This document shows, in pieces, positions 12,041 to 60,965 of a DNA stretch of 64,000 bases. Where the stretch lies: IMG/VR virus record IMGVR_UViG_3300048881_000780, one strand, 5' to 3'. This DNA is from a virus. Lineage: Duplodnaviria > Caudoviricetes. The notes beneath the pieces are model-generated. The model saw only the letters and a program-made list of their open reading frames with translations, was not told where the DNA came from and made no database searches. Positions within the stretch are counted from its first letter, which is position 1. Each line of letters starts with the position of its first letter. The position numbers and the translations under genes were made by a program.

Positions 12041-12223
12041 ATGGACTACTATCTAATGATCTATATGGTTTTCTTTATTATTACCTTTTCTCTTTGTTGG
12101 AAATATCTAGAAAGTAAATCTCATAAAAACTCAAAAAAGGACAATCTTAACAAAATTGAAGATTTAAAAATTGAATTTGACCTAATGTTAAATGGTAAAT
12201 TATCAAGGAAGTTCTTTGAATAA
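12041..12223 (+). CDS. small membrane protein
   Basis: AAGGAG RBS, ATG 12041, single TM. Confidence 0.55.
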   Translation: MDYYLMIYMVFFIITFSLCWKYLESKSHKNSKKDNLNKIEDLKIEFDLMLNGKLSRKFFE

Positions 12224-12527
12224 GTTAGATCGATTAAAAAGACAAATTTCCAACCGTCTTAAACTAAATACTACTATTAATACAAGAGATACTAAGAAGA
12301 AGTATAATCATGCTTTCTCTATAGCTTTTTCTGTCAATACAGACAATGAAGGAAAAAGTGTTACAGAGGAAGAACTTCTCTGTGCGCTAGTCGGTAGAAT
12401 TAAGGATATCTCCGAGGGAAAGGACTGTGAAATGATTGAGGCATGTGGCCTTCCTCATGATACTTACTTAAATGATGAAAATGAGTCCTCCAAGTCGGAG
12501 AACCCTTGGTTAGCATCTCTTAAGTAA
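12216..12527 (+). CDS. hypothetical protein ending in NPWLASLK tag
   Basis: likely TTG start after AAGGAAG; C-terminal motif shared with BspA paralogs. Confidence 0.6.
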   Translation: MNKLDRLKRQISNRLKLNTTINTRDTKKKYNHAFSIAFSVNTDNEGKSVTEEELLCALVGRIKDISEGKDCEMIEACGLPHDTYLNDENESSKSENPWLASLK

Positions 12528-14670
12528 CTGAACACCTCTTCATTTTTTTAACGGCCTTAGCTTTAATTATTTTTTGAATAACTTTTCTTATGCCACGGCC
12601 ACCCATTTCAGAAATCTCTAAATCTGATATTTTCTCTAATTCCTTTTCAATGGTTAATTTTACAGTGATTCCTTTTTTCTTTAATTCACTTTTTAACATT
12701 TCATATTCATAGTTAGCTATTTTTAAAGCTATCTCTCTGTCCATAGAGTTAAAAGAAATAACCTCATCTAATCTATTTAAAAATTCTGGAGCAAAGCTTA
12801 ATGACAGCTCTTTCTCAACAGCTCCTTTATTAGAATATGATCCCCCAAGGGAGATATTCTTCTTTCTCTCAACAACGGCACCTACATTTGAAGTAAATAT
12901 AATTATTGAGTTGTTAAAATCAACTTTCATTCCTCTTGAATCTGTCAATTGCCCGTAATCCATGACTTGTAAAAGCGTCTGATGAATCTTTGGGTGTGCT
13001 TTTTCAATTTCGTCAAAAACAATAATAGATTGAGGATACTTCTTAATTTCTTCAGTAAGTCGACCACCCTCTTCGTACCCAACATAACCTGGTTCTGAAC
13101 CAATTAATTTAGAGAGACTTTCACTCTTACTATATTCAGACATATCAAATCTTGAAACTTTGTATCCAAGGTATTTTGCAATCTGAAGACAGAGTTCTGT
13201 CTTACCAACTCCAGTTGGGCCTCTAAAAAATAATTTAGCAAGTGGCCCTTTATTTCTTATTCCTAAGAATGATTCTTGTAACTTTTCGATAGTATGATCA
13301 ATAGCGTGATCTTGACCAAAAATTACGCTCTTAACTTGATTTCTAACACTCTCTAGAACGATAATTTCAGAGTCTCTACTTATCTTTCGACCTAACTGAA
13401 TCTCTAAATTCTCGTGAATATCATCAATGCTAGCTACCTTCTTAGATTTTATTTTCAATAAAACCCCTAGAGTATCGACAAAGTCTACCATTTTATCAGG
13501 AAAGTTCCTCTCCCTTTGGTGTTTATCTAAAAGATCATAAATTTGTTCATGTAACTTAGCTGGTAGCTCGAATTGGTGAAACTCTTCGTAGAGAGGTACT
13601 CTTTGTTCAGTAAGGAGTAGTACTTCTTTTTTATCCATAAGAGGAATATTTACTTTTGTAACTCTTCTTTTGATTGGGGATGATTTTTCAAAGAATTGAT
13701 TATATTCTTTAAAAGTAGTTGCTCCCAAGAACTTAAGCTTAGGATTTTCTAAGTATGGCTTTAAAATCGATGCTAAGTCATTGCTCTCAGAAGATCCACC
13801 AAGGCCAAAGATTGAATGCATCTCATCGATAAAGACAATCACTTTATTTCCCATCTTTAATAGATAGAATATCTCATCCATACAACCTTTAAATCTCTTT
13901 TCAAACTCTCCTCTATGAATTGATCCGGCCAACATTGAATGAATGTCTAGAGAAATCACCATGGAGTCGAATAGAGACTCATGAGAAGTTTTATTTATAA
14001 TTCTTTCAGTAAGAGAGTAAACTAAACTAGTTTTGCCACAACCGGACTCACCCACAAGTAGTGGATTGGCCTTTTCTTTTTTTAGTAAAACCTTTTCAAT
14101 ATTATCTATTACATCTACCCTCTCGTACATATTAGAGCGAATACCATTACTGATCTCTTTATTGATAACCGAAGAATAGTGATACAGATTTTCGCACTCA
14201 CTAAGGTGATCCTTTTTTAAAGGAGTTATTTCATTTTCTTTCGTTGCTATACTACTTAGTATTTTATTTACTTCTTCTTTAGAAAAAACATTGAATTCGT
14301 TATTATCTACAATATTTTCAAACAACACCATAACACTAGTTTCATCATAACTTAGAGATAGTGCGTCCTTTCGGGCCTTACAGAAAACTTCTTCTAAAGT
14401 AACATCTACCTTAACTCCAACGGCCTGACTCTTTAAGCGATCTGGAAAGAGTGATAAATCATATAGGTTCTTATATATACCTTCATAAATGTGAGACTTC
14501 GTTTTTATCTTTTTGTGAACCTTATCTAGATCAATATTATTTTCTTTTAATAAAGATATGATCTCAGGATATTCTAAGATAACCTGATAAATGTGAAATA
14601 TATTCACTCTTTTAATTGGTTGATTCTTAACTTTATCAATACTCTTTTCTATAACTTTATCTAAATTCAT
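12520..14670 (-). CDS. clpA: ClpA-like double AAA+ ATPase
   Basis: Walker A GESGCGKT and GPTGVGKT, Walker B VFIDE and VFDEIEKAH, GYVG pore loop, no M domain. Confidence 0.85.
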   Translation of the reverse strand: MNLDKVIEKSIDKVKNQPIKRVNIFHIYQVILEYPEIISLLKENNIDLDKVHKKIKTKSHIYEGIYKNLYDLSLFPDRLKSQAVGVKVDVTLEEVFCKARKDALSLSYDETSVMVLFENIVDNNEFNVFSKEEVNKILSSIATKENEITPLKKDHLSECENLYHYSSVINKEISNGIRSNMYERVDVIDNIEKVLLKKEKANPLLVGESGCGKTSLVYSLTERIINKTSHESLFDSMVISLDIHSMLAGSIHRGEFEKRFKGCMDEIFYLLKMGNKVIVFIDEMHSIFGLGGSSESNDLASILKPYLENPKLKFLGATTFKEYNQFFEKSSPIKRRVTKVNIPLMDKKEVLLLTEQRVPLYEEFHQFELPAKLHEQIYDLLDKHQRERNFPDKMVDFVDTLGVLLKIKSKKVASIDDIHENLEIQLGRKISRDSEIIVLESVRNQVKSVIFGQDHAIDHTIEKLQESFLGIRNKGPLAKLFFRGPTGVGKTELCLQIAKYLGYKVSRFDMSEYSKSESLSKLIGSEPGYVGYEEGGRLTEEIKKYPQSIIVFDEIEKAHPKIHQTLLQVMDYGQLTDSRGMKVDFNNSIIIFTSNVGAVVERKKNISLGGSYSNKGAVEKELSLSFAPEFLNRLDEVISFNSMDREIALKIANYEYEMLKSELKKKGITVKLTIEKELEKISDLEISEMGGRGIRKVIQKIIKAKAVKKMKRCSVT

Positions 14671-16954: not shown

Positions 16955-17357
16955 GGTTATATTTTAATAATTAAAAAGTGGTTTCAATATTTCCAAAATT
17001 AATTTTAAAGTGCCTAATTATATCTTCTCTAGTTAATTTAGACTCTGCTCTTCTTTTCTTGTTTTTTCGTCTTGCTCTATTTTTAAATTTCTCTTTATTT
17101 TCTTTTCTACAGAGAGACTCTTTTTCGTTAAATTCTTTTCTCTGCTTTTTACTTTTAAACTTTTTACAATGATTCAAAGTAACCTCCATTGATAATATTA
17201 TAAATAAATATAACATCTAGTGTCAAGACGTAACAAACAGAACCACGTAATTCCAGAAGCTTATCCACTTTTAAACTTTTTTCTATTTTATATTTTGACA
17301 AAGTACGACAATATTTATAACCTAAAACTAACACACTGCAACACACAGTAGGAATTT

Positions 17358-18086
17358 ATGAAATTAATAGTTTTAATAACGCTTCTTGGAACAATTGTTT
17401 CATGTGGGCAACAAGTAAAGGTAAATAAAAGATTTAGTCTTCCAAAGACCGACGAAGTGTTTTCGACATATCTAGAAACCTATTCGGATAATTACGCTCA
17501 GACCTATGGTCAAGCTCCAAGCTTACATAATATCCATATCGTATTTGCAGAGTTCTCAAAAGAGGACTCTCAGTATGCAGGAATCTGTTACACCATCGAA
17601 AATCAGGTTGCCCGGCTCATTGAGATAAACCCAGAACATTGGGCAAAGTACTCAGAGGCCAAGAGGGAAAGTTTAATCTTTCACGAACTAGGACATTGTC
17701 ACCTTAATTTAAAGCATGTGAATGAACATAGAACATACTTTGATCAAACTGATGACTCTCGAGTTAGTAATATCATGTACCCATACATCAACTCTAACTG
17801 GGGCATTAGTCACGAAGTCGTTGATGAAGAAAAGAGAGATTTGGCCCTGGAGATGCTATTTGATCTCGACTTAAATCCAGAAGATAGCGTCTTTATTAGC
17901 TATTTTGAATATTACAATCTTCCTGTTCCGGTAAGCAATATCGGCGTTATGAATGCATTAATGATTAATGAGGAAGATGACTGCGAAAGAGATATTGAGA
18001 ACTCATTAAATAGTTATGAGATCGAAGAAGATACATATACACACGAACATGAAACAGAAGGAGACTCTCATGGAATCGAAAGTTAA
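17358..18086 (+). CDS. lipoprotein metzincin-type zinc metalloprotease
   Basis: lipobox IVSC; HELGHCHLNLKH zinc motif and SNIMYP Met-turn. Confidence 0.8.
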   Translation: MKLIVLITLLGTIVSCGQQVKVNKRFSLPKTDEVFSTYLETYSDNYAQTYGQAPSLHNIHIVFAEFSKEDSQYAGICYTIENQVARLIEINPEHWAKYSEAKRESLIFHELGHCHLNLKHVNEHRTYFDQTDDSRVSNIMYPYINSNWGISHEVVDEEKRDLALEMLFDLDLNPEDSVFISYFEYYNLPVPVSNIGVMNALMINEEDDCERDIENSLNSYEIEEDTYTHEHETEGDSHGIES

Positions 18087-18390
18087 TAACGAAGATACAA
18101 TTATGGATTCAACTAATAAAGTCCCGGCGATGACTTCAACTAAAGAAGTTCCAACCTTGAATATTCTAAAATATGATAGTAATCGTAAACTCTACAATAG
18201 AGATCAAGCTGTCTACACGAATATCGAAAAAATTGCCAAAGCACTTATGGATAATCCTCATGTGAATCTTAAAATTGAAGATCAAGATAAGAAAGATATT
18301 TCAAAAGATGTTGTATACGCATGTTTGAAATATAAACTAGCAGATGAAAGTCTTACTACAGAAATGTTACTAGAGCTTTTTAAGGCATAA
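18070..18390 (+). CDS. PhaR-like (PHA regulator N-terminal DNA-binding domain) protein
   Basis: ILKYDSNRKLYN..YTNIEKIA..DISKDV resembles PhaR IKKYANRRLYN..YVTLEDLA..DIT. Confidence 0.65.
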   Translation: MESKVNNEDTIMDSTNKVPAMTSTKEVPTLNILKYDSNRKLYNRDQAVYTNIEKIAKALMDNPHVNLKIEDQDKKDISKDVVYACLKYKLADESLTTEMLLELFKA

Positions 18391-18391
18391 T

Positions 18392-18482
18392 AAAAAAAGG
18401 ACTCTTACGAGTCCTTTTTTACACACACATACACACACACATAAGGAGTAGGAGATTTGATCTAGAGATGATCGTTCCTACA
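18392..18482 (-). ncRNA. candidate sRNA, copy A
   Basis: TTGACG-N17-TATTAT promoter (18516..18488), 5' stem-loop, CUCCUACUCCUU, (UG)n tract, terminator with GUAA loop; paralog at 44878. Confidence 0.75.
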
Positions 18483-18577
18483 AATTCATAATATCGGCCA
18501 TAACGCAGGCCGTCAAGATATTTATTAATAAAAATTAAAAAATATTAAACCTTATAATATTTGAAATGAGAATTTAT

Positions 18578-18883
18578 ATGAAATTATTTACTTCAATATT
18601 ATTAGTAATGTTATCTATCTCCTCTTATGGAGATGATCATGTTGACATGAACTCTAAAATATTAAAGGCCTTGACTAAAACTAAGTCAGTGAAAAGAATA
18701 AAGAAACCTTTAAAAAGAAAGTTCAAAAGTATCCCAGTAGTAGGACAGGCGTACCCTACTCTTGGTCTTGCCATGATTGGAGTTACTAAGAAAGTTAAAG
18801 GAAAATTTGTTATCTTAGGTAATGATCTACGATATGAAGTAGGTCTTAAGAAAGTAAAAATCGAATATAAAATACAATTTTAA
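18578..18883 (+). CDS. secreted hypothetical protein
   Basis: signal peptide MKLFTSILLVMLSISSYG. Confidence 0.55.
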   Translation: MKLFTSILLVMLSISSYGDDHVDMNSKILKALTKTKSVKRIKKPLKRKFKSIPVVGQAYPTLGLAMIGVTKKVKGKFVILGNDLRYEVGLKKVKIEYKIQF

Positions 18884-27787: not shown

Positions 27788-28078
27788 ATGAATTTGTCCC
27801 CACCATTAAATATTGGACAGAGATATAGGATCGAAAGACCTTCAAAGGGAAACAAAAAGAGAGTTCTCTCTGGGATTTATGAGGTGTCAGCTGTTTATGC
27901 CCAGGTTACCTGGTCAAAAAAAGGTCTTCGGGAACCAAAAGATTATCTTGTTGAATTCTCTATGATCGATGAGAATGATATTACATATACTCTCACTGCG
28001 AGATGGAGGAGTGGGGCCTTTTACCACCCTTATAATCATAAGGAATTACTGAATTGGAGAATTTCTAAGATCCAGTAG
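27788..28078 (+). CDS. hypothetical protein
   Basis: abuts upstream stop; GAGG RBS. Confidence 0.55.
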   Translation: MNLSPPLNIGQRYRIERPSKGNKKRVLSGIYEVSAVYAQVTWSKKGLREPKDYLVEFSMIDENDITYTLTARWRSGAFYHPYNHKELLNWRISKIQ

Positions 28079-43768: not shown

Positions 43769-44297
43769 TAATTAATTCCTTTTTTTGAATTCCTGCTTCT
43801 ACACCACTAGCAAAGGGAAGTGTTTCGCGGTAAATGCTCAATACGTACTCTCTAAAATCTTTTTTGTAATTCTTTGCATATTTATGAAAAGCAGAACTAA
43901 TTAATTTATATTTCATTGTATGCTTTACTCGATCGTAGTAGATACTCTTAAAAGGTGATATCGGTTTATTGGCCGTTATAATATATGAAATGGCAAAGTG
44001 CTCAATAAGACTATGAATCTCAATCTTAAGCTCCTCACAGCCTTCTATTTCATCAATATCTTTAAAGAGAAGTTCTCGACACTTCTTTTTAATTCTAATA
44101 ATTCTTTGAATATTACCCCAAGTTGTATTAAACCTATCCGTTAGATCAATAAAGTTTTCTTCTTCCCTAGTTTTAATTTCAAAATACTTAGTCCAAAAAT
44201 ATGAAGCAAAACCAACGAGAGCTAATATGATACTTAAGATAAAACTTAAAAACTCTGCGTTTGATTTTATATAATCTAGTGTAATAAAACTCACCAT
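43761..44297 (-). CDS. membrane-anchored hypothetical protein
   Basis: N-terminal TM; GGAGG RBS. Confidence 0.55.
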   Translation of the reverse strand: MVSFITLDYIKSNAEFLSFILSIILALVGFASYFWTKYFEIKTREEENFIDLTDRFNTTWGNIQRIIRIKKKCRELLFKDIDEIEGCEELKIEIHSLIEHFAISYIITANKPISPFKSIYYDRVKHTMKYKLISSAFHKYAKNYKKDFREYVLSIYRETLPFASGVEAGIQKKELINE

Positions 44298-44635
44298 TAT
44301 TTTACCTCCACTAATTTGCCTTTAAATATCTTTGAGTAGCTCAAAGCGTTTCCAATGGGCATTGACATACTCTCCATTCCACAAGGATACAGTACTCTGG
44401 CCTGTGGTAAGCGCATGGCCCTAGAGCTTCTTAGAAGTCCTTCGTGATAATAGAAATTTGGGCTCTTGTGAGCAATATAAAGACGAATCTTAAATTTATT
44501 CTCCGAAAATGGAATGATAAGAAATTCAATTAGATGAAATCTTAAAAAGAATATGATCACTAAAGTTATAAATGAAAGAATAAGCATAGAAGCTCCTTTA
44601 AATACCTCCTCTCTTGTAGAGAGGGTCTTGACCAT
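44297..44635 (-). CDS. hypothetical membrane protein
   Basis: one TM; stop overlaps next start. Confidence 0.5.
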   Translation of the reverse strand: MVKTLSTREEVFKGASMLILSFITLVIIFFLRFHLIEFLIIPFSENKFKIRLYIAHKSPNFYYHEGLLRSSRAMRLPQARVLYPCGMESMSMPIGNALSYSKIFKGKLVEVK

Positions 44636-44877
44636 TAATTTCCCATGGCCATTTATATTTATAATCTTTCTAAATCCATTGAAAGTTTGCTAATGATCGA
44701 AGTGTGGTCAATCACTAACAGAACTTAGAATACAACAATTAACACATTGTGTCAAATAACGACTTAACAAGTTTTTATCACATTACTTAAGTGCAAGTAA
44801 TTAAAAGCTTTTTTAAATTAAGGTTTTATTTATAATTTAAATATTGACGACCTGCGTTAAGACCGATATTATAAACT

Positions 44878-44965
44878 TGTAGGAACGACCAATTCTAGGT
44901 CAAATCTCCTACTCCTTATGTGTGTGTATGTGTGTGTAAGAAGAGACTCGAAAGAGTCTCTTTTT
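44878..44965 (+). ncRNA. candidate sRNA, copy B
   Basis: TTGACG-N17-TATTAT promoter at 44844-44872; same architecture as 18392-18482 with compensatory changes. Confidence 0.75.
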
Positions 44966-45022
44966 ATTTTAAGATTTACATTTATAACGCATCATGTTAA
45001 AATAAATTAAAGCGAGGTAGAT

Positions 45023-45157
45023 ATGTCAAATAGAACTATACAAGAAGATTGTTCTCACTCTTTTAACTGTGATGGTTTTTGCGAGTACTGTGGAATATCA
45101 GAGCACGATTACGAATCATCATGCTGTAGCGGCGAGGAGATTGGTCGTTATGAATAA
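45023..45157 (+). CDS. 44-aa Cys-rich zinc-finger-like peptide not in ORF track
   Basis: GAGGT RBS; MSNRTIQEDCSHSFNCDGFCEYCGISEHDYESSCCSGEEIGRYE. Confidence 0.55.
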   Translation: MSNRTIQEDCSHSFNCDGFCEYCGISEHDYESSCCSGEEIGRYE

Positions 45158-46424
45158 GACTTCTCCCTTTATTAGTACATGGAAAATTATAGATAAGAGA
45201 ATTACTTTTCCTTTTAAGAGAAGTGCTAATATTAATTGCACTATCGACTGGGGAGATGGAACGCAATCTCATGTTACTAACTACTTTGATAAGAATAATA
45301 CTCACATCTATAAAGAAAATGGTGAGTATGAAATTAGTATTGTCGGAGATATATTCGAGCTTGATATAAAGCTTGAGGAAAGTGCGAGAATAGTTAAAGT
45401 TTCATCTATGGGTAGATGCTCTTGGAGAGTTTTTAAAGCAATGTTTTGTGAATGTCTGTATCTAAGAGAGTTTAACTCTGGAGACTGTGACTCTTCCTAT
45501 ATAAGCGATATGTATTCTATGTTTAACGGTTGTAAGAGCTTAAAAAAGGTAGTTATTGATTCTTTTGATACTTCAAATGTTTTTGATATGGAATTTATGT
45601 TTGCTAATTGTGAAAACCTAAATTCCTTGCAATTAAAAAACTTTACAAATGAAAGTGTTGTTACAATGCGAGGAATTTTTGAAGGACTCTCAAAGTTAAA
45701 AAGATTAAACTTATCAGACTTTAAGACTCCTAGGGTGCAGATTTTTTCTAGTATGTTTTCGAGTTGTACCAGCTTAAAGAAACTAAACTTAAAATCCTTT
45801 AATACGAGTAATGCTAAATCAATGATTAGTATGTTTAATGCTACTGTATCTCTAGAAAGTCTCGATATCTCTACTTTTCAAACTGGAAACGTTATAGATA
45901 TGCGCTCCATGTTTAATCGCTGCTATGTAAGTGAGCTTAAACTAGATCACTTTGACACGTCATATGTATCATCGATGGAAAATATGTTCAGAGGAATGAT
46001 CAATCTCAAAGAGATAGATATTTCAAATTTTAATATTAAAAATGCTCTATCTCTTCATGGATTATTTAATTCTTGCTCTAGTCTTAAAAAAATAAATTTT
46101 GGAGAAATTAATACCTCAAGAGTTAGAGATTTAAGCTATATGTTTAATAATTGTAGCTCTCTTGAATCCTTGGACTTATCTACCTTTGAGACCTCAAGAG
46201 TTCAATCGATGGATAATATGTTTTACTCTATTCCAGAAAAGTTAAAGGTTGATATAACTCACTTTGATTTTGATAAATTAGAGCAAAATCCGTTCAGGTT
46301 CACTAAAAGTAAGCTTATAATAGATAGTAGGTATAAAAAACACTTTAAAGAGTCTGAAGCTAAAGGTGTAGAATTTGGGGTCAATAAGAGAAGGCATCCC
46401 TGGTTCAAATCATTGTACGCTTAA
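45150..46424 (+). CDS. BspA/DUF285 LRR protein 1
   Basis: GAGGAG RBS, start MNKTSPFISTW; IDWGDG PKD-like domain; FxTSxVxxMxxMF repeats; ends HPWFKSLYA. Confidence 0.9.
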   Translation: MNKTSPFISTWKIIDKRITFPFKRSANINCTIDWGDGTQSHVTNYFDKNNTHIYKENGEYEISIVGDIFELDIKLEESARIVKVSSMGRCSWRVFKAMFCECLYLREFNSGDCDSSYISDMYSMFNGCKSLKKVVIDSFDTSNVFDMEFMFANCENLNSLQLKNFTNESVVTMRGIFEGLSKLKRLNLSDFKTPRVQIFSSMFSSCTSLKKLNLKSFNTSNAKSMISMFNATVSLESLDISTFQTGNVIDMRSMFNRCYVSELKLDHFDTSYVSSMENMFRGMINLKEIDISNFNIKNALSLHGLFNSCSSLKKINFGEINTSRVRDLSYMFNNCSSLESLDLSTFETSRVQSMDNMFYSIPEKLKVDITHFDFDKLEQNPFRFTKSKLIIDSRYKKHFKESEAKGVEFGVNKRRHPWFKSLYA

Positions 46425-47174: not shown

Positions 47175-48546
47175 GAAAAAAAATAAGGAAAGTTGCCCTC
47201 TTACTAGATTTAGAAAAGTTTATGGAAATTACAATAGTGAAAGTATTTTAAAGGCCTGTGAAAAAGGTGACTTTAAAATGTTATTAGATATAGTCACAAG
47301 TGAAGAACTTGAAGGTATGCCAAAAGGATATGTACTAATGTCCATTCCTAAATTTGACAAAGAGCGTATCTACTATGATTTTATAAATAACTTTCAAGAT
47401 AGCGACTCCCCCTATTTAAGAGAAGCGTGCGTAAAAGCTCTCTATGAATATTTAGATACTGAAAACTCTAAAGAAGTTGATTCTTTTAAACTTAAAATCA
47501 CTAATATTAGATATAACTCTAAAGACTTCCCTGGTGTCGTCAAGAGAATTGATTCTATATTTAAGTGGCTTGGGTCAAGTGAAGATCAAGATAAACTAGA
47601 ACTTGCTAAAGATACCATTAGGTATTTACTTAAATATATTGTCGAAAAAGATGAAGAACATCACGATTATTCAAAGAGTAGCGTTGATAATCATCAACTC
47701 TATAGTGAAGTTGAAAAGGAAAGAATTTCAACATTTTTAATGAATAATAGAAAATTTAATACGACAACCAGAGATTTATTTAGAAGCTTGTATCAGGATC
47801 ACTATGTTGATCTTAATTTTGTAACACTTGAGAAGATATTTGGAAATCTGGATAGCTTTAGAAGTAACTTAAAGAAAAAGAGTTTACTTGTCCGAGGATG
47901 TGACTATAGTGACAAAGAGGATAGTTTAAGAATTCAAACAACATTTGATAATCTAGAGAGAAAGCTTAGAGAACATCACGGTATAAAATTCTCTTTTAAA
48001 TCTATCTGCATGGAAGAAGTCGATACAGTTGATCTCATAATGAAGCTCACTAGAAATAGAATGAGAGGACTTTTAGACTTAGAGTACTTTTTTTTAGAAG
48101 AGCTTGAAATCTGCAAATCTCTAATGATTGATGGCCTTGAAATATTAGAGAGTGCCAATAGAGGTTATCACGGCAATGGGGAGAATATCCCTTATGGAGT
48201 ATTTTTAGCTAAGTCTTTTCCAAAGCACTGGAAACTTCCAACTGAGATGACAATGAATTTAACAACTCGGGACACAGTTAGCTCTATTTATCACAAAAGT
48301 GATAATCCAATAGTTGACTCCTTGAAGGATAAATTCAAAGAAGATGACGTAAATGCCATAAAGGAGTTCTTAAGAACCCAGATTGATGACTTTGATAAGA
48401 AGTTAGCAAATAGTCACCCGGCGCTTGAGAGTAATTATCAACTGCTGGCCCATAGACTTAGAGATTTTTGTAATTACTACGATATTGAATATACCAGGGC
48501 CATAGAATCATTTTTTAAAGGCCCTGAGAGTTTTAGGGAGTACTAA
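47167..48546 (+). CDS. hypothetical protein, possible N-terminal HEAT-like repeat
   Basis: FQDSDSPYLREACVKAL; long helical ORF. Confidence 0.55.
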   Translation: MGKKKNKESCPLTRFRKVYGNYNSESILKACEKGDFKMLLDIVTSEELEGMPKGYVLMSIPKFDKERIYYDFINNFQDSDSPYLREACVKALYEYLDTENSKEVDSFKLKITNIRYNSKDFPGVVKRIDSIFKWLGSSEDQDKLELAKDTIRYLLKYIVEKDEEHHDYSKSSVDNHQLYSEVEKERISTFLMNNRKFNTTTRDLFRSLYQDHYVDLNFVTLEKIFGNLDSFRSNLKKKSLLVRGCDYSDKEDSLRIQTTFDNLERKLREHHGIKFSFKSICMEEVDTVDLIMKLTRNRMRGLLDLEYFFLEELEICKSLMIDGLEILESANRGYHGNGENIPYGVFLAKSFPKHWKLPTEMTMNLTTRDTVSSIYHKSDNPIVDSLKDKFKEDDVNAIKEFLRTQIDDFDKKLANSHPALESNYQLLAHRLRDFCNYYDIEYTRAIESFFKGPESFREY

Positions 48547-49523
48547 TGAAGATTTACGAGAGAATTAATGCTACTCACCTATTCTTTTATGGCGGGATTT
48601 TCTCTCAGTGGTACACGCAGGCACCATTTTATGATCAAGAACTAAATTTAAGATTCAGCTCTGGTGAGCAATACATGATGTATCGAAAGGCCCTCTTATT
48701 TAAAGATAGAGACGCTATGGCCAAAATAATGAGTACAACCTCACCAAAAGAAGTGAAAGATCTAGGAAGAGATGTTTCAGGCTTTAAACAAGATATCTGG
48801 GATGCTCATAAATTAGATATTATTGTAAGAGCTAATTTTCTTAAATTTTCGCAAAACGAAGCCCTCTTAAATAAAATGAGAAAGTATGCTCATTTAAAGT
48901 TAGTGGAGGCCTCTCCTGTCGATACTATATATGGAATAGGACTTAAATCCACTGACTCTAGAGTATTGGATGAAAGTAAGTGGAGAGGAGAGAATCTTCT
49001 CGGTGTGGCCTTAATGAGAGCGAGAGATTTAATTTTAAATCAAAACATTTCTCCTCATATTGTCATGAGAAACGCTAGCATTATTAATGCTAGTGAAAAT
49101 ATTATTGCGCATGGGTGCAATACTCAAGGGGCCAGTGGAGCAGGAATTGCGAAGTATATGGCCTTAAAATTTCCCCTATCAGATCGAGAGTATAAAAAAA
49201 GATGTAGAAATGGCGATTTTATACTTGGAGATATTCTCTTTTATCGGGAAAACTCTAAAATAATAGCCAATTGTGCCACTCAGGAGTACTACGGTCGAAG
49301 ACTTAAGATGGATAAGGATTCTGTAGAAAATAGATATCAGGCCATAAGACAATGCTTAACAAGGATTTATGTCAACGCAAAAAGAGAGCAAATGAGCGTG
49401 GCCATTCCAAAACTTGGGTGTGGTAGAGCACGCCTGGATTGGAGTAGAGTATTAAATATAATAAAAGAAGTATTTCACGATTATCCAATTACGATATATT
49501 ATATAGAAGATAAATATTGTTAG
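48546..49523 (+). CDS. NADAR + macrodomain fusion (ADP-ribose hydrolase)
   Basis: FSQWY, EQYMMYRKA, KFSQN, LVEASP..YGIG, WRGENLLG (NADAR); IAHGCN..GAGIA, IPKLGCG..LDW (macro). Confidence 0.92.
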   Translation: MKIYERINATHLFFYGGIFSQWYTQAPFYDQELNLRFSSGEQYMMYRKALLFKDRDAMAKIMSTTSPKEVKDLGRDVSGFKQDIWDAHKLDIIVRANFLKFSQNEALLNKMRKYAHLKLVEASPVDTIYGIGLKSTDSRVLDESKWRGENLLGVALMRARDLILNQNISPHIVMRNASIINASENIIAHGCNTQGASGAGIAKYMALKFPLSDREYKKRCRNGDFILGDILFYRENSKIIANCATQEYYGRRLKMDKDSVENRYQAIRQCLTRIYVNAKREQMSVAIPKLGCGRARLDWSRVLNIIKEVFHDYPITIYYIEDKYC

Positions 49524-51814: not shown

Positions 51815-52834
51815 CTACGCCAATGCCTCTAACCAGGTATTAATGGGTTTGCTCTCACTGGCCCCATCAAATCCTTTAATAAACCTAAGAGACTTGGAAT
51901 TAAACGTAATATTACTTTTACACTGGTACAAAAAAGACTTTCTCTTAATATCATCAGAGATCGTAAATCCTGAGAAATTTACCTTTGGGGCCACAAAACC
52001 ATTAAACATATCTGCGATAGTGATTGCGGAATTGGATTTAAATCCACGTAGATCTAAATTTCTTTCAAGCGAACACCTTGAGAACATTTCTATAAAGTTT
52101 TGAGCTTTTTCAGTTTTAAAATTTGATAGATTAAGATTTTTAAAACTAGAATCCTGAAACATTCTCTCCATGGTTTTACAATTTCTAGTATTGAAATTTG
52201 AAAGGTCTAAATAATCTAAGTTAAGTTGAGAAAACATCGCAGTCATACAAAGAACTTTTTCTGTGTTAAATGATTTGATGTTCAGCGATTCGAGACTGTG
52301 CATCTCAGAAAACATATGTCCCATATAGAGAACATTAGCTGTGTTAAATGAACTTAAATCTAACCTTTCTAGAGAATAGAGTTCACTAAAGGTACCTGAC
52401 ATATCGTTTACATTTGAGGTGTCAATATTGAGAGTTAATTCCTTAATATTATGACATCTAATAAACATTTCAGAGATACTACTAACATTACTAGTATTAC
52501 AAGTTCCAGAGTTAAATTTTTTGAGATCGAAACAATTTGCAAAGCTATACCATAGATTTTCCCATTCGCAATCGCCAAGATTTTTTACCTCTATAAGGGT
52601 GGCACCTTCAACATTTGAAGATACCCAACTCTTTAAGTTTCCAGCTATTGAAATGGTATAAATACCAGCTGTCTTATAGGTGTGGGTTGCCTTGACGTTA
52701 CCAGTAATATTTTCTAAGTCAGATCCGTCTCCCCAGTCTATTAGTAAGTTGACATCTATTCCATTATTAGTGGGGAGAGTGATCTTATTGTCGCTACCAA
52801 TAGTTTGCCAGCAACTTACAAATGATTCTTTCAT
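51815..52834 (-). CDS. BspA/DUF285 LRR protein 3
   Basis: start MKESFVSCW after AAGGAAG; IDWGDG; repeats; ends NTWLEALA. Confidence 0.9.
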   Translation of the reverse strand: MKESFVSCWQTIGSDNKITLPTNNGIDVNLLIDWGDGSDLENITGNVKATHTYKTAGIYTISIAGNLKSWVSSNVEGATLIEVKNLGDCEWENLWYSFANCFDLKKFNSGTCNTSNVSSISEMFIRCHNIKELTLNIDTSNVNDMSGTFSELYSLERLDLSSFNTANVLYMGHMFSEMHSLESLNIKSFNTEKVLCMTAMFSQLNLDYLDLSNFNTRNCKTMERMFQDSSFKNLNLSNFKTEKAQNFIEMFSRCSLERNLDLRGFKSNSAITIADMFNGFVAPKVNFSGFTISDDIKRKSFLYQCKSNITFNSKSLRFIKGFDGASESKPINTWLEALA

Positions 52835-52857
52835 TATTAACTTCCTTGTTGTGCTTA

Positions 52858-53967
52858 TCATGAAATAGACTCCAGCCAAGTGTTTTTAGTATCCTCTTGG
52901 TTTTGGTCTGTTGTGAATTGACTTCCTTCCTTGAAGTAATCTATATTTTTCTTATATCTCGTTTTTATTTTTACATTTGCTTTACTCTTATAGTGAACAA
53001 AGTTATGAAAGTTTGCGACAGCGCTAAATCTAAAATTTGATAAATCTATCTCTTTTAAATTATCTGAATAGAAAAATATTGCACCAAAATCTACGACATT
53101 AGATGTTTTAAATGATCCTAGATTTACTTCCTTTAAATTATCACAACATTTAAACATTGCTCTCATATCAGTGACACATTCAGTATTAAAGCTCGATAGA
53201 TCTAGCGACACTAGGCCCCTGCACTTTTCAAACATTCCCTGCATATCAAGGGCGCTATCAGTTCGCATGTGATCTAGATTTAAATTCTGTAAATTATAGC
53301 AATTTTTAAACATTCCTCTGAAACTTAAAACACTACCAGCATCAAATCTCTCTAAATCTAGAGAGAGTAAGTTATTCATGCCAGAGAACATTCGAGACAT
53401 TGTTGTAACATTAAAAACATCTAAGTTCCTTAAGTCGAGATGATTTATTCCGGATTTTCTAAACATAACTTTCATATTTTCAACAAATGAAGTATTCAAA
53501 TTATCAATATTTAAATTATTTAAATTAATAGTTTTGTGAAATAATCCTTCCATATTAATAACAGAGCTCGAGTCAAAGGTGGAGAGATCTATATCTGTAA
53601 GATTCTTACACCCATGAAACATATTTTTCATAGATGTAACATTTGAAGTATTACAGCTGCCACTGTTAAATTTTGTCAATGATTTACAGTTTTCAAAGGA
53701 TCCTGCGAAAGTTATCCAATCGCAATCACCAAGATCAAAAACTTTTACTACTTGTATGGATGGATAATCTAAAATATGCATGGCCTGAATCTTACCATAG
53801 AAGCAAATGGTATACTCTCCATTTTCTTCGTAGGTATGATCTAGCTCATTACTGGAAATGATTCCATCACCCCAATCTATAGCGAACTCTACGTCTGTTC
53901 TATGAAACTTAAGAGGGAGAGTTACACTACCCTTTTTCACACGCCAACTGGCCCTAAATGGTTTCAT
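52858..53967 (-). CDS. BspA/DUF285 LRR protein 4
   Basis: MKPFRASW; IDWGDG; repeats; ends NTWLESIS. Confidence 0.9.
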   Translation of the reverse strand: MKPFRASWRVKKGSVTLPLKFHRTDVEFAIDWGDGIISSNELDHTYEENGEYTICFYGKIQAMHILDYPSIQVVKVFDLGDCDWITFAGSFENCKSLTKFNSGSCNTSNVTSMKNMFHGCKNLTDIDLSTFDSSSVINMEGLFHKTINLNNLNIDNLNTSFVENMKVMFRKSGINHLDLRNLDVFNVTTMSRMFSGMNNLLSLDLERFDAGSVLSFRGMFKNCYNLQNLNLDHMRTDSALDMQGMFEKCRGLVSLDLSSFNTECVTDMRAMFKCCDNLKEVNLGSFKTSNVVDFGAIFFYSDNLKEIDLSNFRFSAVANFHNFVHYKSKANVKIKTRYKKNIDYFKEGSQFTTDQNQEDTKNTWLESIS

Positions 53968-54070
53968 TTTATCTATATTAATAACAAGCCTCTCTAGATT
54001 TGATATTAACATATTTTTTATTTTCTAACAAGTTGCGTTAAAAACAATCAATAATTAGACATAGTTAGAA

Positions 54071-54512: not shown

Positions 54513-55454
54513 TCACTCTAGAGATTCTAGCCAGGTATTTCTTATTGATCCTGAGATTGCATTTGGAATATCGTGAAAATACAATTTCCCATTCTTTACT
54601 GGTAATAGTATTTTACAGAGGACATCACAAAATATACCAATATTAGATCCAGAAAAGTCAAAAGAGTATAACTTAAGTTTTTTAAGAGAGCTACACCCTC
54701 TAAACATATAATCCATATCATTTGCATTGCTAGTATCAAAGAAATCTACGTTTAATCTTAAAAGAGAATTGCAATGAGTGAACATATTTCTAAATGATTC
54801 TACACTGTAAGTCTTAAAGTGGTTTAGATCTAGAGACTCTAGACTGTGGCAATCTTTAAACATCTTCTCCATTGATTCAACTTTTGAAGTATTAAAATTT
54901 GATATATCTAAGAAGTTAAGAGCACTAGCTCCTTCAAACATCGACTTCATTGATTTAGTGTTTTTGGTACAAAATGAAGATAAGTCTAGATATTTAAGCC
55001 TTTTACAATTGGAAAAAAGATGCCTCATATTCTTTACATTATATGTATGAGAGTTCGATAAAGAGACTCTCTCTAGAGATTCACACTCATCAAACATAAA
55101 GCTCAAATCTTTTACTGTTTTTGGAATTGCTCCATTATAACTTTCGAGCATTTTACAACCATAGAAGGCATTTGATAAATCCTGCCAATGGCAGTCACCT
55201 AAATGATGAACGGCCAAAAGTTCACACGATGAGACTTTATAAGATCTCCAAAGTCCTAATTTTCCAGATATTGTTAATGTGTAATTGCCATTAATTTCAT
55301 ATATATGAACGGCGTTTGGGTCATCGTAGGAAGTTATATGATCACTTTTCCCATCGCCCCAGTCGACAGTAAAGTCGTAATCAAACCCCTCAAATAGAGG
55401 GAGAGCTAAAACTCTCTTTTGGACTAGCCAGGTACTAACAAAGTTTTTTGACAT
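54513..55454 (-). CDS. BspA/DUF285 LRR protein 5
   Basis: FVSTW, VDWGDG, repeats; ends NTWLESLE. Confidence 0.9.
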   Translation of the reverse strand: MSKNFVSTWLVQKRVLALPLFEGFDYDFTVDWGDGKSDHITSYDDPNAVHIYEINGNYTLTISGKLGLWRSYKVSSCELLAVHHLGDCHWQDLSNAFYGCKMLESYNGAIPKTVKDLSFMFDECESLERVSLSNSHTYNVKNMRHLFSNCKRLKYLDLSSFCTKNTKSMKSMFEGASALNFLDISNFNTSKVESMEKMFKDCHSLESLDLNHFKTYSVESFRNMFTHCNSLLRLNVDFFDTSNANDMDYMFRGCSSLKKLKLYSFDFSGSNIGIFCDVLCKILLPVKNGKLYFHDIPNAISGSIRNTWLESLE

Positions 55455-55568: not shown

Positions 55569-56513
55569 TTAGCTAATGGCCCTAAGCCAACTATTACAGT
55601 TTTTATTATCCGTGACGATATTAAGATTTGATGATGCAAACATCTCTAGATACTTCCTCGATACCTTCACTAAAGCATTAGAGTTAGTTATTTTCGATTT
55701 TGCTAGGGACTCATCGAACTCGAAGTTTTTAAGATTAATTTTCTTAAGTTTAGGAGTGTCATAGAACGCCTTTGTAATATCTTTAAGTTTGGAGAACTTT
55801 CTGTGTCCAAAGTTGATGGATTCGAGGTTCCTACAGTTAAAAAATGCTCTATTCATATGATTAATTTTATGGGGCCTAAAATTTGATAAATCAAGTTTTC
55901 TTATTCCCGAAGAGCTAAAGACGCACGAAAAGCCAATGAGATTTTCCGTATTAAATTCACTAAGATCGACTTCTCTTAAACTTTTAGTACCGTGAAATGC
56001 TGAAAACATTTGAGTTAAAGAAGATGAATTTATTTTACCAAAATCAACATTTTCTAACTTTTCGCAGCCACGAAACAAGCTAGACATAATTTTAACATTA
56101 GAAAAATCAAAGGTTGATAAATCTGCGGTTTCAAGTTTTTCACATTCTGAAAATAAACCGTTTAAATTCTTTATTTTGATCGTATCACAATTGCCTGCGA
56201 CAAACTTTTTAAGGTTAATACAGTCACTAAATAAAGATCCGACATTATACCAATTTAGATCACCAAATTGAAGAACCTCAATCAACTTAGCTTTATCTCT
56301 TAGCTTTATAAATAGTCCTCTGTGAATTGACCCTGATACTCTTATTGTGTAAATTCCAGGTTCTTTATACTTATGAACAGCTGAGTTCTTGCTATTTTGA
56401 TCAATACTCCCATCACCCCAATCAATTGTAAGCCCTGAGGCATCTTGTAAGAAAAAAAGCGTCTCATTACTATTGGTAATTTGCCATCGACTAATAAAAT
56501 CAAAGTTACTCAT
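55569..56513 (-). CDS. BspA/DUF285 LRR protein 6
   Basis: FISRW, IDWGDG, repeats; ends NSWLRAIS. Confidence 0.9.
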   Translation of the reverse strand: MSNFDFISRWQITNSNETLFFLQDASGLTIDWGDGSIDQNSKNSAVHKYKEPGIYTIRVSGSIHRGLFIKLRDKAKLIEVLQFGDLNWYNVGSLFSDCINLKKFVAGNCDTIKIKNLNGLFSECEKLETADLSTFDFSNVKIMSSLFRGCEKLENVDFGKINSSSLTQMFSAFHGTKSLREVDLSEFNTENLIGFSCVFSSSGIRKLDLSNFRPHKINHMNRAFFNCRNLESINFGHRKFSKLKDITKAFYDTPKLKKINLKNFEFDESLAKSKITNSNALVKVSRKYLEMFASSNLNIVTDNKNCNSWLRAIS

Positions 56514-57365: not shown

Positions 57366-57729
57366 AGTTTCAAGTATTACAGAAGCTAGAGATATAATTG
57401 ATAAATTTCACGCTCGAAAAATAATGATTCATAATGGGAAAAGGTGGAGTGTTGCCTCAGTGAAAAGAATTATCCCTATGATTAGTAATTACCCAAAAGG
57501 GCCAATAGATGATATTGAAATCCTAATTAATAAAGAAAAGAATCACTACTTTTCAGCACTCTGTTTATTTGGAAAAAGATCATGGGTTAAAGATATTAGG
57601 ATTTGTGATGATTATAATAGAAATTCCCTAAAGATGGTAGCAATTCATCCTACTCCTAAAAATGATGAGATGATCATTAGAGTGGCCAGATTTATTAAAT
57701 TAATTTACTTAAAACAAAAGACGAAATGA
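57355..57729 (+). CDS. hypothetical protein
   Basis: overlapping start/stop in operon. Confidence 0.55.
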   Translation: MQNRVSSITEARDIIDKFHARKIMIHNGKRWSVASVKRIIPMISNYPKGPIDDIEILINKEKNHYFSALCLFGKRSWVKDIRICDDYNRNSLKMVAIHPTPKNDEMIIRVARFIKLIYLKQKTK

Positions 57730-58574
57730 GTTCTTTTAGATTTGTAATAAATATTCCCAATGATGATACAGTCGTAAGTATGAGAGTTTATGAAGAGTAT
57801 CGTTATAGTTTTAAAGTTAATTGGGGAGATGAATGCTTTGGTAGTTACACTTATCGAAACAAGAGTCGCAACATAATACATCATACTTTTGAAAAAGCTG
57901 GAGAATATACTATTGTAATGAGTGGCAGGATTGGCAAAATCAGAGCGGAGGAAACTTTATTTAAATATATAACTGAGGTTATAGATTTAGGAGATTGTAA
58001 GTGGCAGGATTTATCATTCATGTTCGCTGAATGTAATAATATGGTTAGATTTAAAGGTGGCATTACTTCTGATGTTAAATCAATGGATCATATGTTCACA
58101 GATTGCAAGAAACTGAGTTTTTTAGATATTTCTAGTTTTGACACTTACAATGTAACTAATATGAGAGGTATGTTTACAGGACTCTCCAAACTCAGTCATA
58201 TTGACGTTAGTCACTTCAACACCTTCAATGTTACGGATATGTCGCATATGTTTAGAGGTATGAAATCACTTAGACATTTAAGCATATCTAACTTTCGATT
58301 TAAAGGCCCTGTCAATATGGGCCTTAGTTTTGATGATTTGAACTCCTGTGAGGTATTGGATCTAAGACACTTAGATTTTAGTAAGATAGATCTATACTTA
58401 ATTAATGATGTTAGAAGTTATCAGAACTGTTTTAAGTATGGACCAAAGAAGGTAATTGTTAAGCTAGAGGATTTTTGTAAGTACTTTAAGGGTAATCCGC
58501 GCGTTTACGGATTAGTTGAAGATAGAAGAAAGAATAGCTGGTTAAACTCGCTAGATATCGAGGATTTCAAATGA
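57726..58574 (+). CDS. BspA/DUF285 LRR protein 7
   Basis: VNWGD, FDTYNVTNMRGMF repeats; ends NSWLNSLDIEDFK. Confidence 0.88.
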   Translation: MSSFRFVINIPNDDTVVSMRVYEEYRYSFKVNWGDECFGSYTYRNKSRNIIHHTFEKAGEYTIVMSGRIGKIRAEETLFKYITEVIDLGDCKWQDLSFMFAECNNMVRFKGGITSDVKSMDHMFTDCKKLSFLDISSFDTYNVTNMRGMFTGLSKLSHIDVSHFNTFNVTDMSHMFRGMKSLRHLSISNFRFKGPVNMGLSFDDLNSCEVLDLRHLDFSKIDLYLINDVRSYQNCFKYGPKKVIVKLEDFCKYFKGNPRVYGLVEDRRKNSWLNSLDIEDFK

Positions 58575-59465: not shown

Positions 59466-60965
59466 ATGACGACCAACGCTATAACGAATGAGTTATTAGT
59501 CCTCTATTTAGATAATGAAGATGTAATCTACAATCAAGTAAGACAGGCCACTTGCAAAAAACTCAGTAGAGCATTTCTTGGTCAAATTAAAAGAAAATTA
59601 TCTCTTGAATTTGACGATGATAATGGATATCGAAAGCACAAGAAGATTGATTTCAATCTAGAGAATGGCTCCTCTATCTATTTATTGCTAATAAAGAAGT
59701 CTATACCTACTCTCGAGTTATATGAGGCCCTTAGAGATGCTCTAAGTCTACCATTTAAGGCCGGTGGAACATATTCATATAATATCTCAAATATCTCAAT
59801 AGAAGACCAAGAGAGGCTAACTAGAGGTGTATATCAACTTGAAGAGCTCTCTAAATTTCAAATACCTACTAAGAGTAAACATACCAGTAAAAAAGCAAAG
59901 GTAGAGATAAACTCTGGCTTCTATACTGACTTAGCGGATCACGAACTCTATGCGCTAAATAAAGAAAGTACTAGTTTAAGTAAGAATGTTAATCAAGCAA
60001 AATTATTTTGCTACTCTCCTGCCAATATTCTAGACGCTAGAAATTATGTAAAGGAAATTGAAAAGCTAATATCTAAGCAAAAAGATGTTGAATACGAATT
60101 CTTTGATTACGAATGGCTTAAGAAAAATGATTACAATCTATTTCTCGCTGTTTCTCAGGCCGATTTAGACCAGGGCGGAGGTATTGTTAAACTTACTTAT
60201 AGACCTTTAATCAAAGACTCTAAAAGTAAAAAGAATAGACCGCTTGCCATTATTGGAAAAGGAATTGTTTACGATACTGGTGGACTTACAATTAAGCCCG
60301 AAATGGAAGGAATGCATAGAGACATGACAGGTTCCGCGGTTGCACTTGGGACATTCTTGTCTCTTGTTTCGATGAAAGTGAATAAGAATCTCAATTGCTA
60401 TCTTCCAATAACTGAAAATAAGATATCGCAATACGCTTATAGACCAAGTGATATTATTGTAACTAAGAATAAAATATCTGTGGAAGTCGTAGATACTGAT
60501 GCCGAAGGAAGAATGTGTCTGGCCGACTCAATTGCAATGGCCCTAGAAGATAAATGTAGCTCTATTTTTGATTTTGCCACACTAACAGGAACAATACCTG
60601 ACTCAGTTGGAAAGAAGACTGCTGGTATAGCTAGTAATGATAAGAAGATTCGATCTCTAATTGAAGACAGTAGCCATATTTCAGGTGAGAACTTTTGGAA
60701 TTTTCCACTACCTAATTACATTATGGATGACCTACAAAGTACTGACATGGCCGACATTAAACAAAGCTTAACTGAAGAAGGTTGTGATCACATTGTGGGA
60801 GCTCAATTTCTACATTATTTTACTGGGGATACTCCTTGGGCCCATCTAGATTTGTCATGTGAATTCTTGGATGGAGGATTAGGCTTATCAAATACTGAAG
60901 TCACTGCTCATGGATTAGTTTTTGGGTATCACTTGATAAACAAATATATTGAGATGGAGTCATAA
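59466..60965 (+). CDS. pepA: M17 leucyl aminopeptidase
   Basis: GKGIVYDTGG..K..DM, DTDAEGR, ATLTG, WAHLD. Confidence 0.9.
   Translation: MTTNAITNELLVLYLDNEDVIYNQVRQATCKKLSRAFLGQIKRKLSLEFDDDNGYRKHKKIDFNLENGSSIYLLLIKKSIPTLELYEALRDALSLPFKAGGTYSYNISNISIEDQERLTRGVYQLEELSKFQIPTKSKHTSKKAKVEINSGFYTDLADHELYALNKESTSLSKNVNQAKLFCYSPANILDARNYVKEIEKLISKQKDVEYEFFDYEWLKKNDYNLFLAVSQADLDQGGGIVKLTYRPLIKDSKSKKNRPLAIIGKGIVYDTGGLTIKPEMEGMHRDMTGSAVALGTFLSLVSMKVNKNLNCYLPITENKISQYAYRPSDIIVTKNKISVEVVDTDAEGRMCLADSIAMALEDKCSSIFDFATLTGTIPDSVGKKTAGIASNDKKIRSLIEDSSHISGENFWNFPLPNYIMDDLQSTDMADIKQSLTEEGCDHIVGAQFLHYFTGDTPWAHLDLSCEFLDGGLGLSNTEVTAHGLVFGYHLINKYIEMES

Follow-up and report, generated by a model that had tools for sequence, protein, structure and literature searches.

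The DNA analysed here, referred to throughout as the window, is the whole 64,000-nucleotide stretch of a caudoviricete virus record (IMGVR_UViG_3300048881_000780) and belongs to an ORFan-rich contig of 361 kb. The window has a GC content of 32%, contains many ORFans and lacks tRNA genes. Among the genes that can be identified are those for a ClpB-like ATPase, a C5-methylase, SprT-like peptidases, BspA/DUF285 LRR paralogues, an M17 peptidase and a NADAR-Macro protein (Table 1). The nearest relative of the element's helicase is 27-31% identical to it, and no match to the M17 peptidase exceeds 46% identity, its nearest named relatives coming from Bdellovibrionota MAGs at 32-43% identity. The LRR paralogues number six and show mutual identities of about 30%; in their alignment all have an N-terminal DWGDG motif and a C-terminal consensus, NTWLESL, with an invariant Trp.

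Two intergenic regions of the window carry inverted copies of one unit, a promoter followed by a predicted small RNA (sRNA), with copy A on the minus strand and copy B on the plus strand 26.3 kb away. They form the longest repeat within the window. An earlier sequence-only reading had described them as diverged copies of promoter plus RNA some 26 kb apart, and the repeat, the alignment and the covariance-model scores all bear this out. With the promoter included, A and B align at 87% identity over 185 columns, and the RNA part alone reaches 93%. The similarity extends from a few bases 5' of the -35 hexamer to the end of the terminator U-tract; the flanks of the two copies do not align to each other, and no similarity was found between the divergent ORFs beside them (18566-18883 and 44297-44635). 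Scored with a covariance model of A and B, the two copies reach 123 and 115 bits, and the model finds no third diverged copy in the 64-kb window (next best score, 18.8 bits).

Table 1. Positions of the genes, the two sRNA units, the palindromes and the predicted target sites in the window.
Feature	Position	Strand	Remark
ClpB-like double AAA+ ATPase	12520-14670	minus	
NADAR-Macro fusion	48546-49523	plus	ADP-ribose processing
M17 leucyl aminopeptidase	59466-60965	plus	
LRR paralogues	45069-46424, 51815-52879, 52858-54012, 54513-55454, 55569-56513, 57726-58574		
Copy A, whole unit	18392-18516	minus	
Copy A promoter	18488..18516	minus	-35 TTGACG 18516-18511, 17-nt spacer, -10 TATTAT 18493-18488
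Copy A operator-like palindrome	18500-18516		one mismatch
Copy A predicted RNA	18392..18481	minus	90 nt; putative ends
Copy A 5' hairpin	18448..18481	minus	GUAGGA/UCCUAC outer stem, GAUC/GAUC inner stem, 7-nt loop
Copy A single-stranded seed	18421..18447	minus	UCCUUA then (UG)5-UA-(UG)4-U
Copy A intrinsic terminator	18392..18420	minus	12-bp stem, GUAA loop, U7
Copy B, whole unit	44844-44965	plus	
Copy B promoter	44844..44872	plus	TTGACG-17-TATTAT
Copy B palindrome	44844-44860		TTGACGACCTGCGTTAA; perfect TTRAC-N7-GTYAA match
Copy B predicted RNA	44879..44965	plus	87 nt
Copy B hairpin	44879-44912	plus	inner stem GACC/GGUC
Copy B seed	44913-44937	plus	UG tract (UG)4-UA-(UG)4-U
Copy B terminator	44938-44965	plus	GAAA loop
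Palindromes in promoters flanking copy B	44739-44755 and 44984-45000		
Palindrome in promoter of 17358 operon	17295-17311		operon adjoins copy A
Perfect palindrome sites, whole window	2176, 5429, 15518, 16276, 21898, 24013, 26437, 28532, 29744, 37805, 44739, 44844, 50810, 57127, 59382		
Best predicted target site	18029..18069	plus	start region of gene 18070-18390
Second predicted target site	17329..17357	plus	short CA-rich leader (AACACACUGCAACACACAGUAGGA) of gene 17358-18086

The two predicted RNAs share one minimum-energy fold, in which a 5' hairpin of 6 bp plus 4 bp is followed by about 26 unpaired nucleotides, a 12-bp terminator hairpin with a GNRA loop and a U-tract. With energies of -25.0 kcal/mol for A and -27.1 kcal/mol for B, the folds have z-scores of -4.7 and -4.3 against dinucleotide shuffles. 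In both copies the putative +1 is the G that lies 7 nt after the -10 hexamer (G18481 in copy A), from which the lengths of 90 and 87 nt follow. Reading both sequences alongside their folds confirms the GUAGGA/UCCUAC stem that had been proposed for both copies, and the anti-SD segment and (UG)n tract said to follow the hairpin are indeed there and unpaired in both folds. Seen from its 5' end the pairing region reads 5'-UCUCCUA-CUCCUUA-(UG)n-3' and so contains two anti-SD motifs. The first of these (in copy A, UCUCCUAC) lies in the 3' arm of the 5' hairpin and is half buried there, and the second, which belongs to the seed of copy A, is CUCCUUA, the classical anti-SD heptamer of the 16S rRNA 3' end. 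The terminator of copy A is two-way and also ends the convergent gene 18070-18390 on the plus strand. A terminator scan missed the terminator hairpins of both copies, probably as A- and U-runs at their flanks extend the stem and consume the tail.

The differences between the copies are distributed unevenly along the RNA. All 22 base pairs are standard in both A and B, although 7 paired positions differ. Changes on both sides are seen in three pairs, one of them in the inner helix (U-A to C-G) and two in the terminator (G-C to A-U, A-U to G-C), and one further pair in the terminator has gone from A-U to G-U. When the 3' partners were slid by 1-3 columns as a control, 43-55% of cells paired and at most one compensated pair was seen. 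The covariation claimed for the inner helix (GAUC/GAUC in A, GACC/GGUC in B) is thereby upheld by the alignment, as is that of the terminator with its GNRA loop kept (GUAA and GAAA), where there turn out to be two compensated pairs rather than one, in a 12-bp stem. The count comes from two paralogous sequences in one element and not from independent lineages, so its statistics are weak. Of the ten substitutions in the RNA, the other three affect the two loops, and a core of 38 columns, which begins on the hairpin's 3' side and ends with the UG tract, is free of substitutions. If substitutions were uniformly placed, this would have a chance of about 0.006; the sole change within this core is an indel of one TG unit. 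Gene conversion between A and B could also have kept the core identical. An invariant seed, covarying stems and free loops together fit the pattern of a base-pairing sRNA.

Might the unit instead work as DNA, as a cluster of regulator sites with a Z-DNA-prone (TG)n, as a recombination or partition site, or as a small mobile repeat? It does hold the palindrome that recurs across the element, and (TG)n can slip, which is the kind of change that separates A from B. However, two separate hairpins show compensatory changes, which points to structure in the single strand, the palindrome makes up only 17 of the roughly 125 bp, and the edges of the unit have neither terminal inverted repeats nor target duplications. 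I regard a DNA-level role as very improbable. Nor is the unit a terminator-associated repeat. It has the appearance of a family of RNA genes on this element, non-coding, structured and complete in themselves.

Folding is silent on which strand is used, since the opposite strand of A and B folds equally well. The assignment of the sRNA strand depends on the promoter, which is conserved at a fixed distance from the hairpin, and on the U-tract, and is helped by the fact that at copy B the other strand has neither a promoter nor an upstream gene. Judged by its sequence, the A/B unit is not coding on the sRNA strand: the ORFs there start in the UG tract without an SD and read past the terminator, and the compensatory changes are non-synonymous in them. 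A coding reading was rejected, there being no conserved ORF, no SD and no ORF that respects the terminator. On the opposite strand, the SD-like AAGGAGUAGGAG is followed only by ORFs of 2 and 7 codons.

As the RNA carries two anti-SD motifs and then (UG)n, its seed is the antisense of a start region composed of a CA-rich stretch and an SD. It is documented that CA- and ACA-rich sequences serve as enhancers and that GcvB silences them through its GU-rich seed (PMC3879156). A search of GTDB genomes and IMG/VR with the looser pattern CTCCT...(TG)n gave 229 matches, and on the opposite strand of 116 of these there is a (CA)n, an AGGAG, a start codon 3-13 nt further on and an ORF of at least 50 codons. 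Six of the loci (L128, L129, L151, L160, L164 and L204), all on low-GC viral contigs in IMG/VR, have an identical gene start, AACACACACAAACACACACAUAAGGAGAAAUUAUG (for example L129:2028-2087). With its (CA)n enhancer and SD, this gene start would be an almost perfect complement of the sRNA seed.

The same resemblance can be read the other way round, with the opposite strand as the functional one. The unit would then be a duplicated orphan or relic start region, composed of a terminator, a (CA)n enhancer and a strong SD (UAAGGAGUAGGAG), perhaps with a tiny start-stop or 7-codon ORF, and the sRNA promoter would be incidental. That half of the pattern matches elsewhere are true start regions speaks for this, as do the equally good fold of that strand and the presence in both copies of UUG-NNN-UAG and 7-codon ORFs after the SD. 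However, neither copy has an ORF of more than 7 codons, the 7-codon peptide differs between the copies at 4 of 7 positions, the sequence next to the SD is locked in a hairpin, and at copy B that strand has neither a promoter nor an upstream gene. Furthermore, what is conserved is TTGACG-17-TATTAT and its spacing to the hairpin, in the sRNA orientation. I hold a functional opposite strand to be quite improbable.

TTGACG-17-TATTAT was recovered in both copies by a promoter scan, at an equal distance from the hairpin. It had been claimed that this promoter comes with a palindromic operator in A and B, and so it does, the palindrome being perfect in B and one mismatch away in A. The 17-bp palindrome, TTRAC-N7-GTYAA, is not confined to the sRNA genes: the window has 15 perfect sites against 0.42 expected, and 41 sites against 13.5 expected when up to one mismatch is allowed. 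The perfect sites often include a TTGAC that resembles a -35 hexamer. From its sequence and distribution the palindrome looks like an element-wide operator or regulon. Because it sits in the sRNA promoters as well as in the promoters flanking copy B and that of the operon adjoining copy A, the sRNA genes are wired into one presumed regulon together with many of the element's genes.

The strongest predicted targets of the seed lie next to copy A. Genes 17358-18086 and 18070-18390 overlap by 17 nt, form one operon and converge on copy A. The first encodes an SprT-like/phage metallopeptidase. The second probably starts at ATG 18070 rather than at 18016, to judge from the SD AAGGAG 6 nt upstream, and encodes a protein of 106 aa with a sub-threshold Pfam match to the PhaR N-terminal DNA-binding domain; the nearest Atlas clusters hold small, mostly viral PF07879 proteins, and a structure model made from the single sequence is poor (pLDDT 59.6). 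A duplex scan of the whole window (both strands, about 42,600 windows, sRNA genes excluded) places the start region of 18070 first, at -35.9 kcal/mol against a background mean of -9.7 (sd 4.1) kcal/mol. The duplex has about 29 bp, among them 15 uninterrupted pairs formed with the UG tract, and fully covers the SD AAGGAGA; in full-length co-folding it needs the 5' hairpin opened. The leader of 17358 ranks fifth in the scan. It pairs with the single-stranded seed alone, both sRNA hairpins remaining intact, and nearly the whole leader is covered, including its AGGA. Rank two (27973-28017) is not a start region. Full-length co-folding of the 17358 and 18070 sites gives a ddG of -23 to -26 kcal/mol with either copy, and a search of the window without the sRNA genes for the complement of the UG tract (up to 3 mismatches) has a sole match, at 18029-18044.

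When the 80 start regions alone are considered, the five best energies are stronger than those of 198-200 out of 200 dinucleotide-shuffled seeds and the reversed seed reaches only -26.1, target statistics that are partly driven by composition and motif, since an anti-SD pairs with any SD and (UG)n is promiscuous through G-U pairing. The site at 12041 may lie upstream of its own transcription start. The sequence-only reading had further made the RNA a multi-target repressor, and this part of it fared poorly within the window: strong pairing is limited to about three start regions, of which two belong to the operon adjoining copy A, and the enrichment of CA-rich motifs upstream of starts is mild (8 of 80 genes against a background of 3-4%, part of it being operator sequence). 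On complementarity, operon 17358-18390 may be the main target of the sRNA, a proposal that I put forward tentatively and at somewhat less than even confidence.

The RNA could also be real and have its main targets elsewhere, either (CA)n+SD starts in the remaining ~300 kb of the contig, in the host or in competing phages and plasmids, or it might sequester an RNA-binding protein with a preference for UG repeats. The seed comes close to an ideal antisense of a start layout that is widespread (the conserved phage gene start at L129 is one example), there are several copies per element, and co-folding found no strongly complementary neighbour for copy B. Set against this, the two best start-region matches in the window belong to one operon, the one adjoining copy A, and no UG-binding protein was identified. 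I consider targets elsewhere, or such sequestration, rather unlikely.

The proximity of the copies to genes raises a further possibility, namely that each RNA acts on its adjacent gene alone, as a cis leader or attenuator or as the antisense RNA of a toxin-antitoxin-like pair. Copy B is 58 nt upstream of a Cys-rich peptide and LRR operon, and copy A converges on 18070-18390 and has its terminator in common with that gene. Yet copy A has no downstream gene on the same strand, a promoter and operator belonging to the LRR operon itself lie between the terminator of copy B and the gene, and the overlap of copy A with the convergent gene is the terminator hairpin only. A and B have unrelated genes on their flanks, with no small hydrophobic toxin ORF in common. 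More generally, features of cis-antisense RNAs or type I toxin-antitoxin systems were not seen at A or B, where there is neither an extended overlap nor a conserved adjacent small toxin or target gene, whereas the copies have the general features of trans-acting sRNAs: their own promoter and intrinsic terminator, and no coding potential. An effect limited to the adjacent gene is highly unlikely. The Cys-rich short ORF downstream of copy B (45023-45150, plus) begins with ATG 45023 after an SD, GAGG, and precedes the first LRR gene.

Does the RNA belong to a known family? In Rfam 15 no family reached its gathering score anywhere in the window. At E<=10, copy A picked up ncr1015 at 24 bits (threshold 60) and Atu_C8 at 22.6 bits (threshold 50), and copy B matched nothing; this covariance search thus returned sub-threshold noise and no known family. 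A search of the window and of the pattern loci with the A/B covariance model found no homologue outside the element, the best score among the looser-pattern loci being 34 bits. Exact core patterns were absent from IMG/VR and from GTDB genomes, and the single JGI metagenome match of the core pattern (L002) was discarded as unrelated and due to chance. blastn of the unit against phage and plasmid collections gave nothing relevant, its one phage match being a 38-nt chance hit, and an 8-kb flank had no match in the phage collection. Two loci reached through the M17 peptidase (L004 and L006) have neither the RNA nor the operator.

Comparison with known systems suggests relationships of design rather than of descent. 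GcvB is an enterobacterial, Hfq-dependent sRNA with a G/U-rich R1 seed. This seed is single-stranded and pairs with C/A-rich enhancers just upstream of the SD, which blocks translation (PMC3879156). The A/B RNAs resemble it in having a G/U-rich unpaired seed, predicted to pair with the CA-rich start regions of 18070 and 17358, and an intrinsic terminator at the end, a resemblance that is functional only: GcvB is absent from the Rfam matches, both at the gathering score and at E<=10. Unlike in GcvB, the A/B seed joins two anti-SD motifs to a strict dinucleotide repeat, and the gene occurs in more than one copy, on a mobile element, with no gcvA-like gene divergent from it.

The streptococcal csRNAs (which are controlled by CiaR), Listeria LhrC1-5 and RsaE/RoxS are sibling anti-SD sRNAs of Firmicutes, about 90-150 nt long and present in several near-identical copies. 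In these families a pyrimidine-rich anti-SD lies unpaired between a 5' hairpin and the terminator and represses translation initiation; each copy has its own promoter with a regulator site, the seeds are UCCC or CCUCC and the genes are chromosomal. The A/B unit shares with csRNA/LhrC-type RNAs the several copies and the unpaired anti-SD between 5' hairpin and terminator, a likeness of architecture only, and neither copy matches these families in Rfam at the gathering score or at E<=10. It differs from the csRNAs in that its promoter contains the palindrome TTGAC-N7-GTTAA/T and not the CiaR direct repeat TTTAAG-N5-TTTAAG, and from csRNA, LhrC and RsaE alike in that its seed is extended by a UG repeat and that it is carried on a giant mobile element.

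FinP and other antisense RNAs of plasmids and phages are cis-encoded, fully complementary to their target and occlude its RBS. Like FinP, the A/B RNA is a small two-hairpin RNA of a transfer-capable element and is predicted here to cover the RBS of a regulator gene. In contrast to FinP, copy A has no more than the shared terminator in common with its neighbour, and the pairing is predicted to take place in trans and to be imperfect, at 29 bp with loops. Most likely, as far as sequence comparison can tell, A and B represent a previously undescribed family of sibling sRNAs that would be GcvB- and csRNA/LhrC-like in action and a member of none of these families.

Taken together, I think it reasonably probable that A and B encode a real sRNA that is transcribed independently and, by base pairing, occludes ribosome-binding sites. 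That the RNA is transcribed, its strand and ends, its repressive effect and what it targets I infer from sequence. Each copy would be its own transcription unit, with a sigma70-type promoter, a stabilising 5' hairpin, an unpaired seed and an intrinsic terminator, and with the -35 hexamer inside the recurring 17-bp palindromic operator. Were the regulator bound there to leave the promoter, the RNA would be made and would pair with mRNAs in which a CA-rich stretch immediately precedes the SD; pairing would block 30S binding and possibly trigger decay. The best candidate target would be the bicistronic operon 17358-18390, in which both start regions are complementary to the seed. A more elaborate version, which I consider unlikely, has the sRNA as the post-transcriptional arm of the operator regulon, switched on with replication and repair genes and silencing the SprT-like/PhaR-N operon as feedback on the element's regulator; alternatively or in addition it would be an 'anti-start-region' weapon against the host or rival phages.

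If the unit is transcribed, it represents a new sRNA family, present in several copies on a mobile element that is very large and almost wholly uncharacterised, with a seed that is unusually easily read as the exact antisense of the widespread layout of CA enhancer plus SD. It would then offer a simple case of a giant element that couples a DNA-level regulon, built on a palindromic operator, to translational control, and a compact natural tool against CA-enhanced start regions. If it is not transcribed, the unit is merely a duplicated intergenic repeat.

Two smaller observations concern the surroundings of copy B. Transcribed from an operator-bearing promoter at 44755, the leader of gene 44635-44297 (44689-44719, minus) forms a 13-bp hairpin with a CCACACU loop. 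A divergent partner RNA with a CA loop, facing each sRNA, was nevertheless considered and rejected, given that co-folding of this leader with the sRNA at copy B yields only -3.7 kcal/mol and that nothing of the kind is present at copy A. Finally, the Logan contigs of run SRR35531919 are letter-for-letter identical to the window, beyond which the sequence goes on for 947 nt and ends inside a repeat gene, and they cross copy A unbroken; two of them break inside copy B, where one stops at 44892 and the other starts at 44910. This break suggests that further copies elsewhere share long exact words with copy B.
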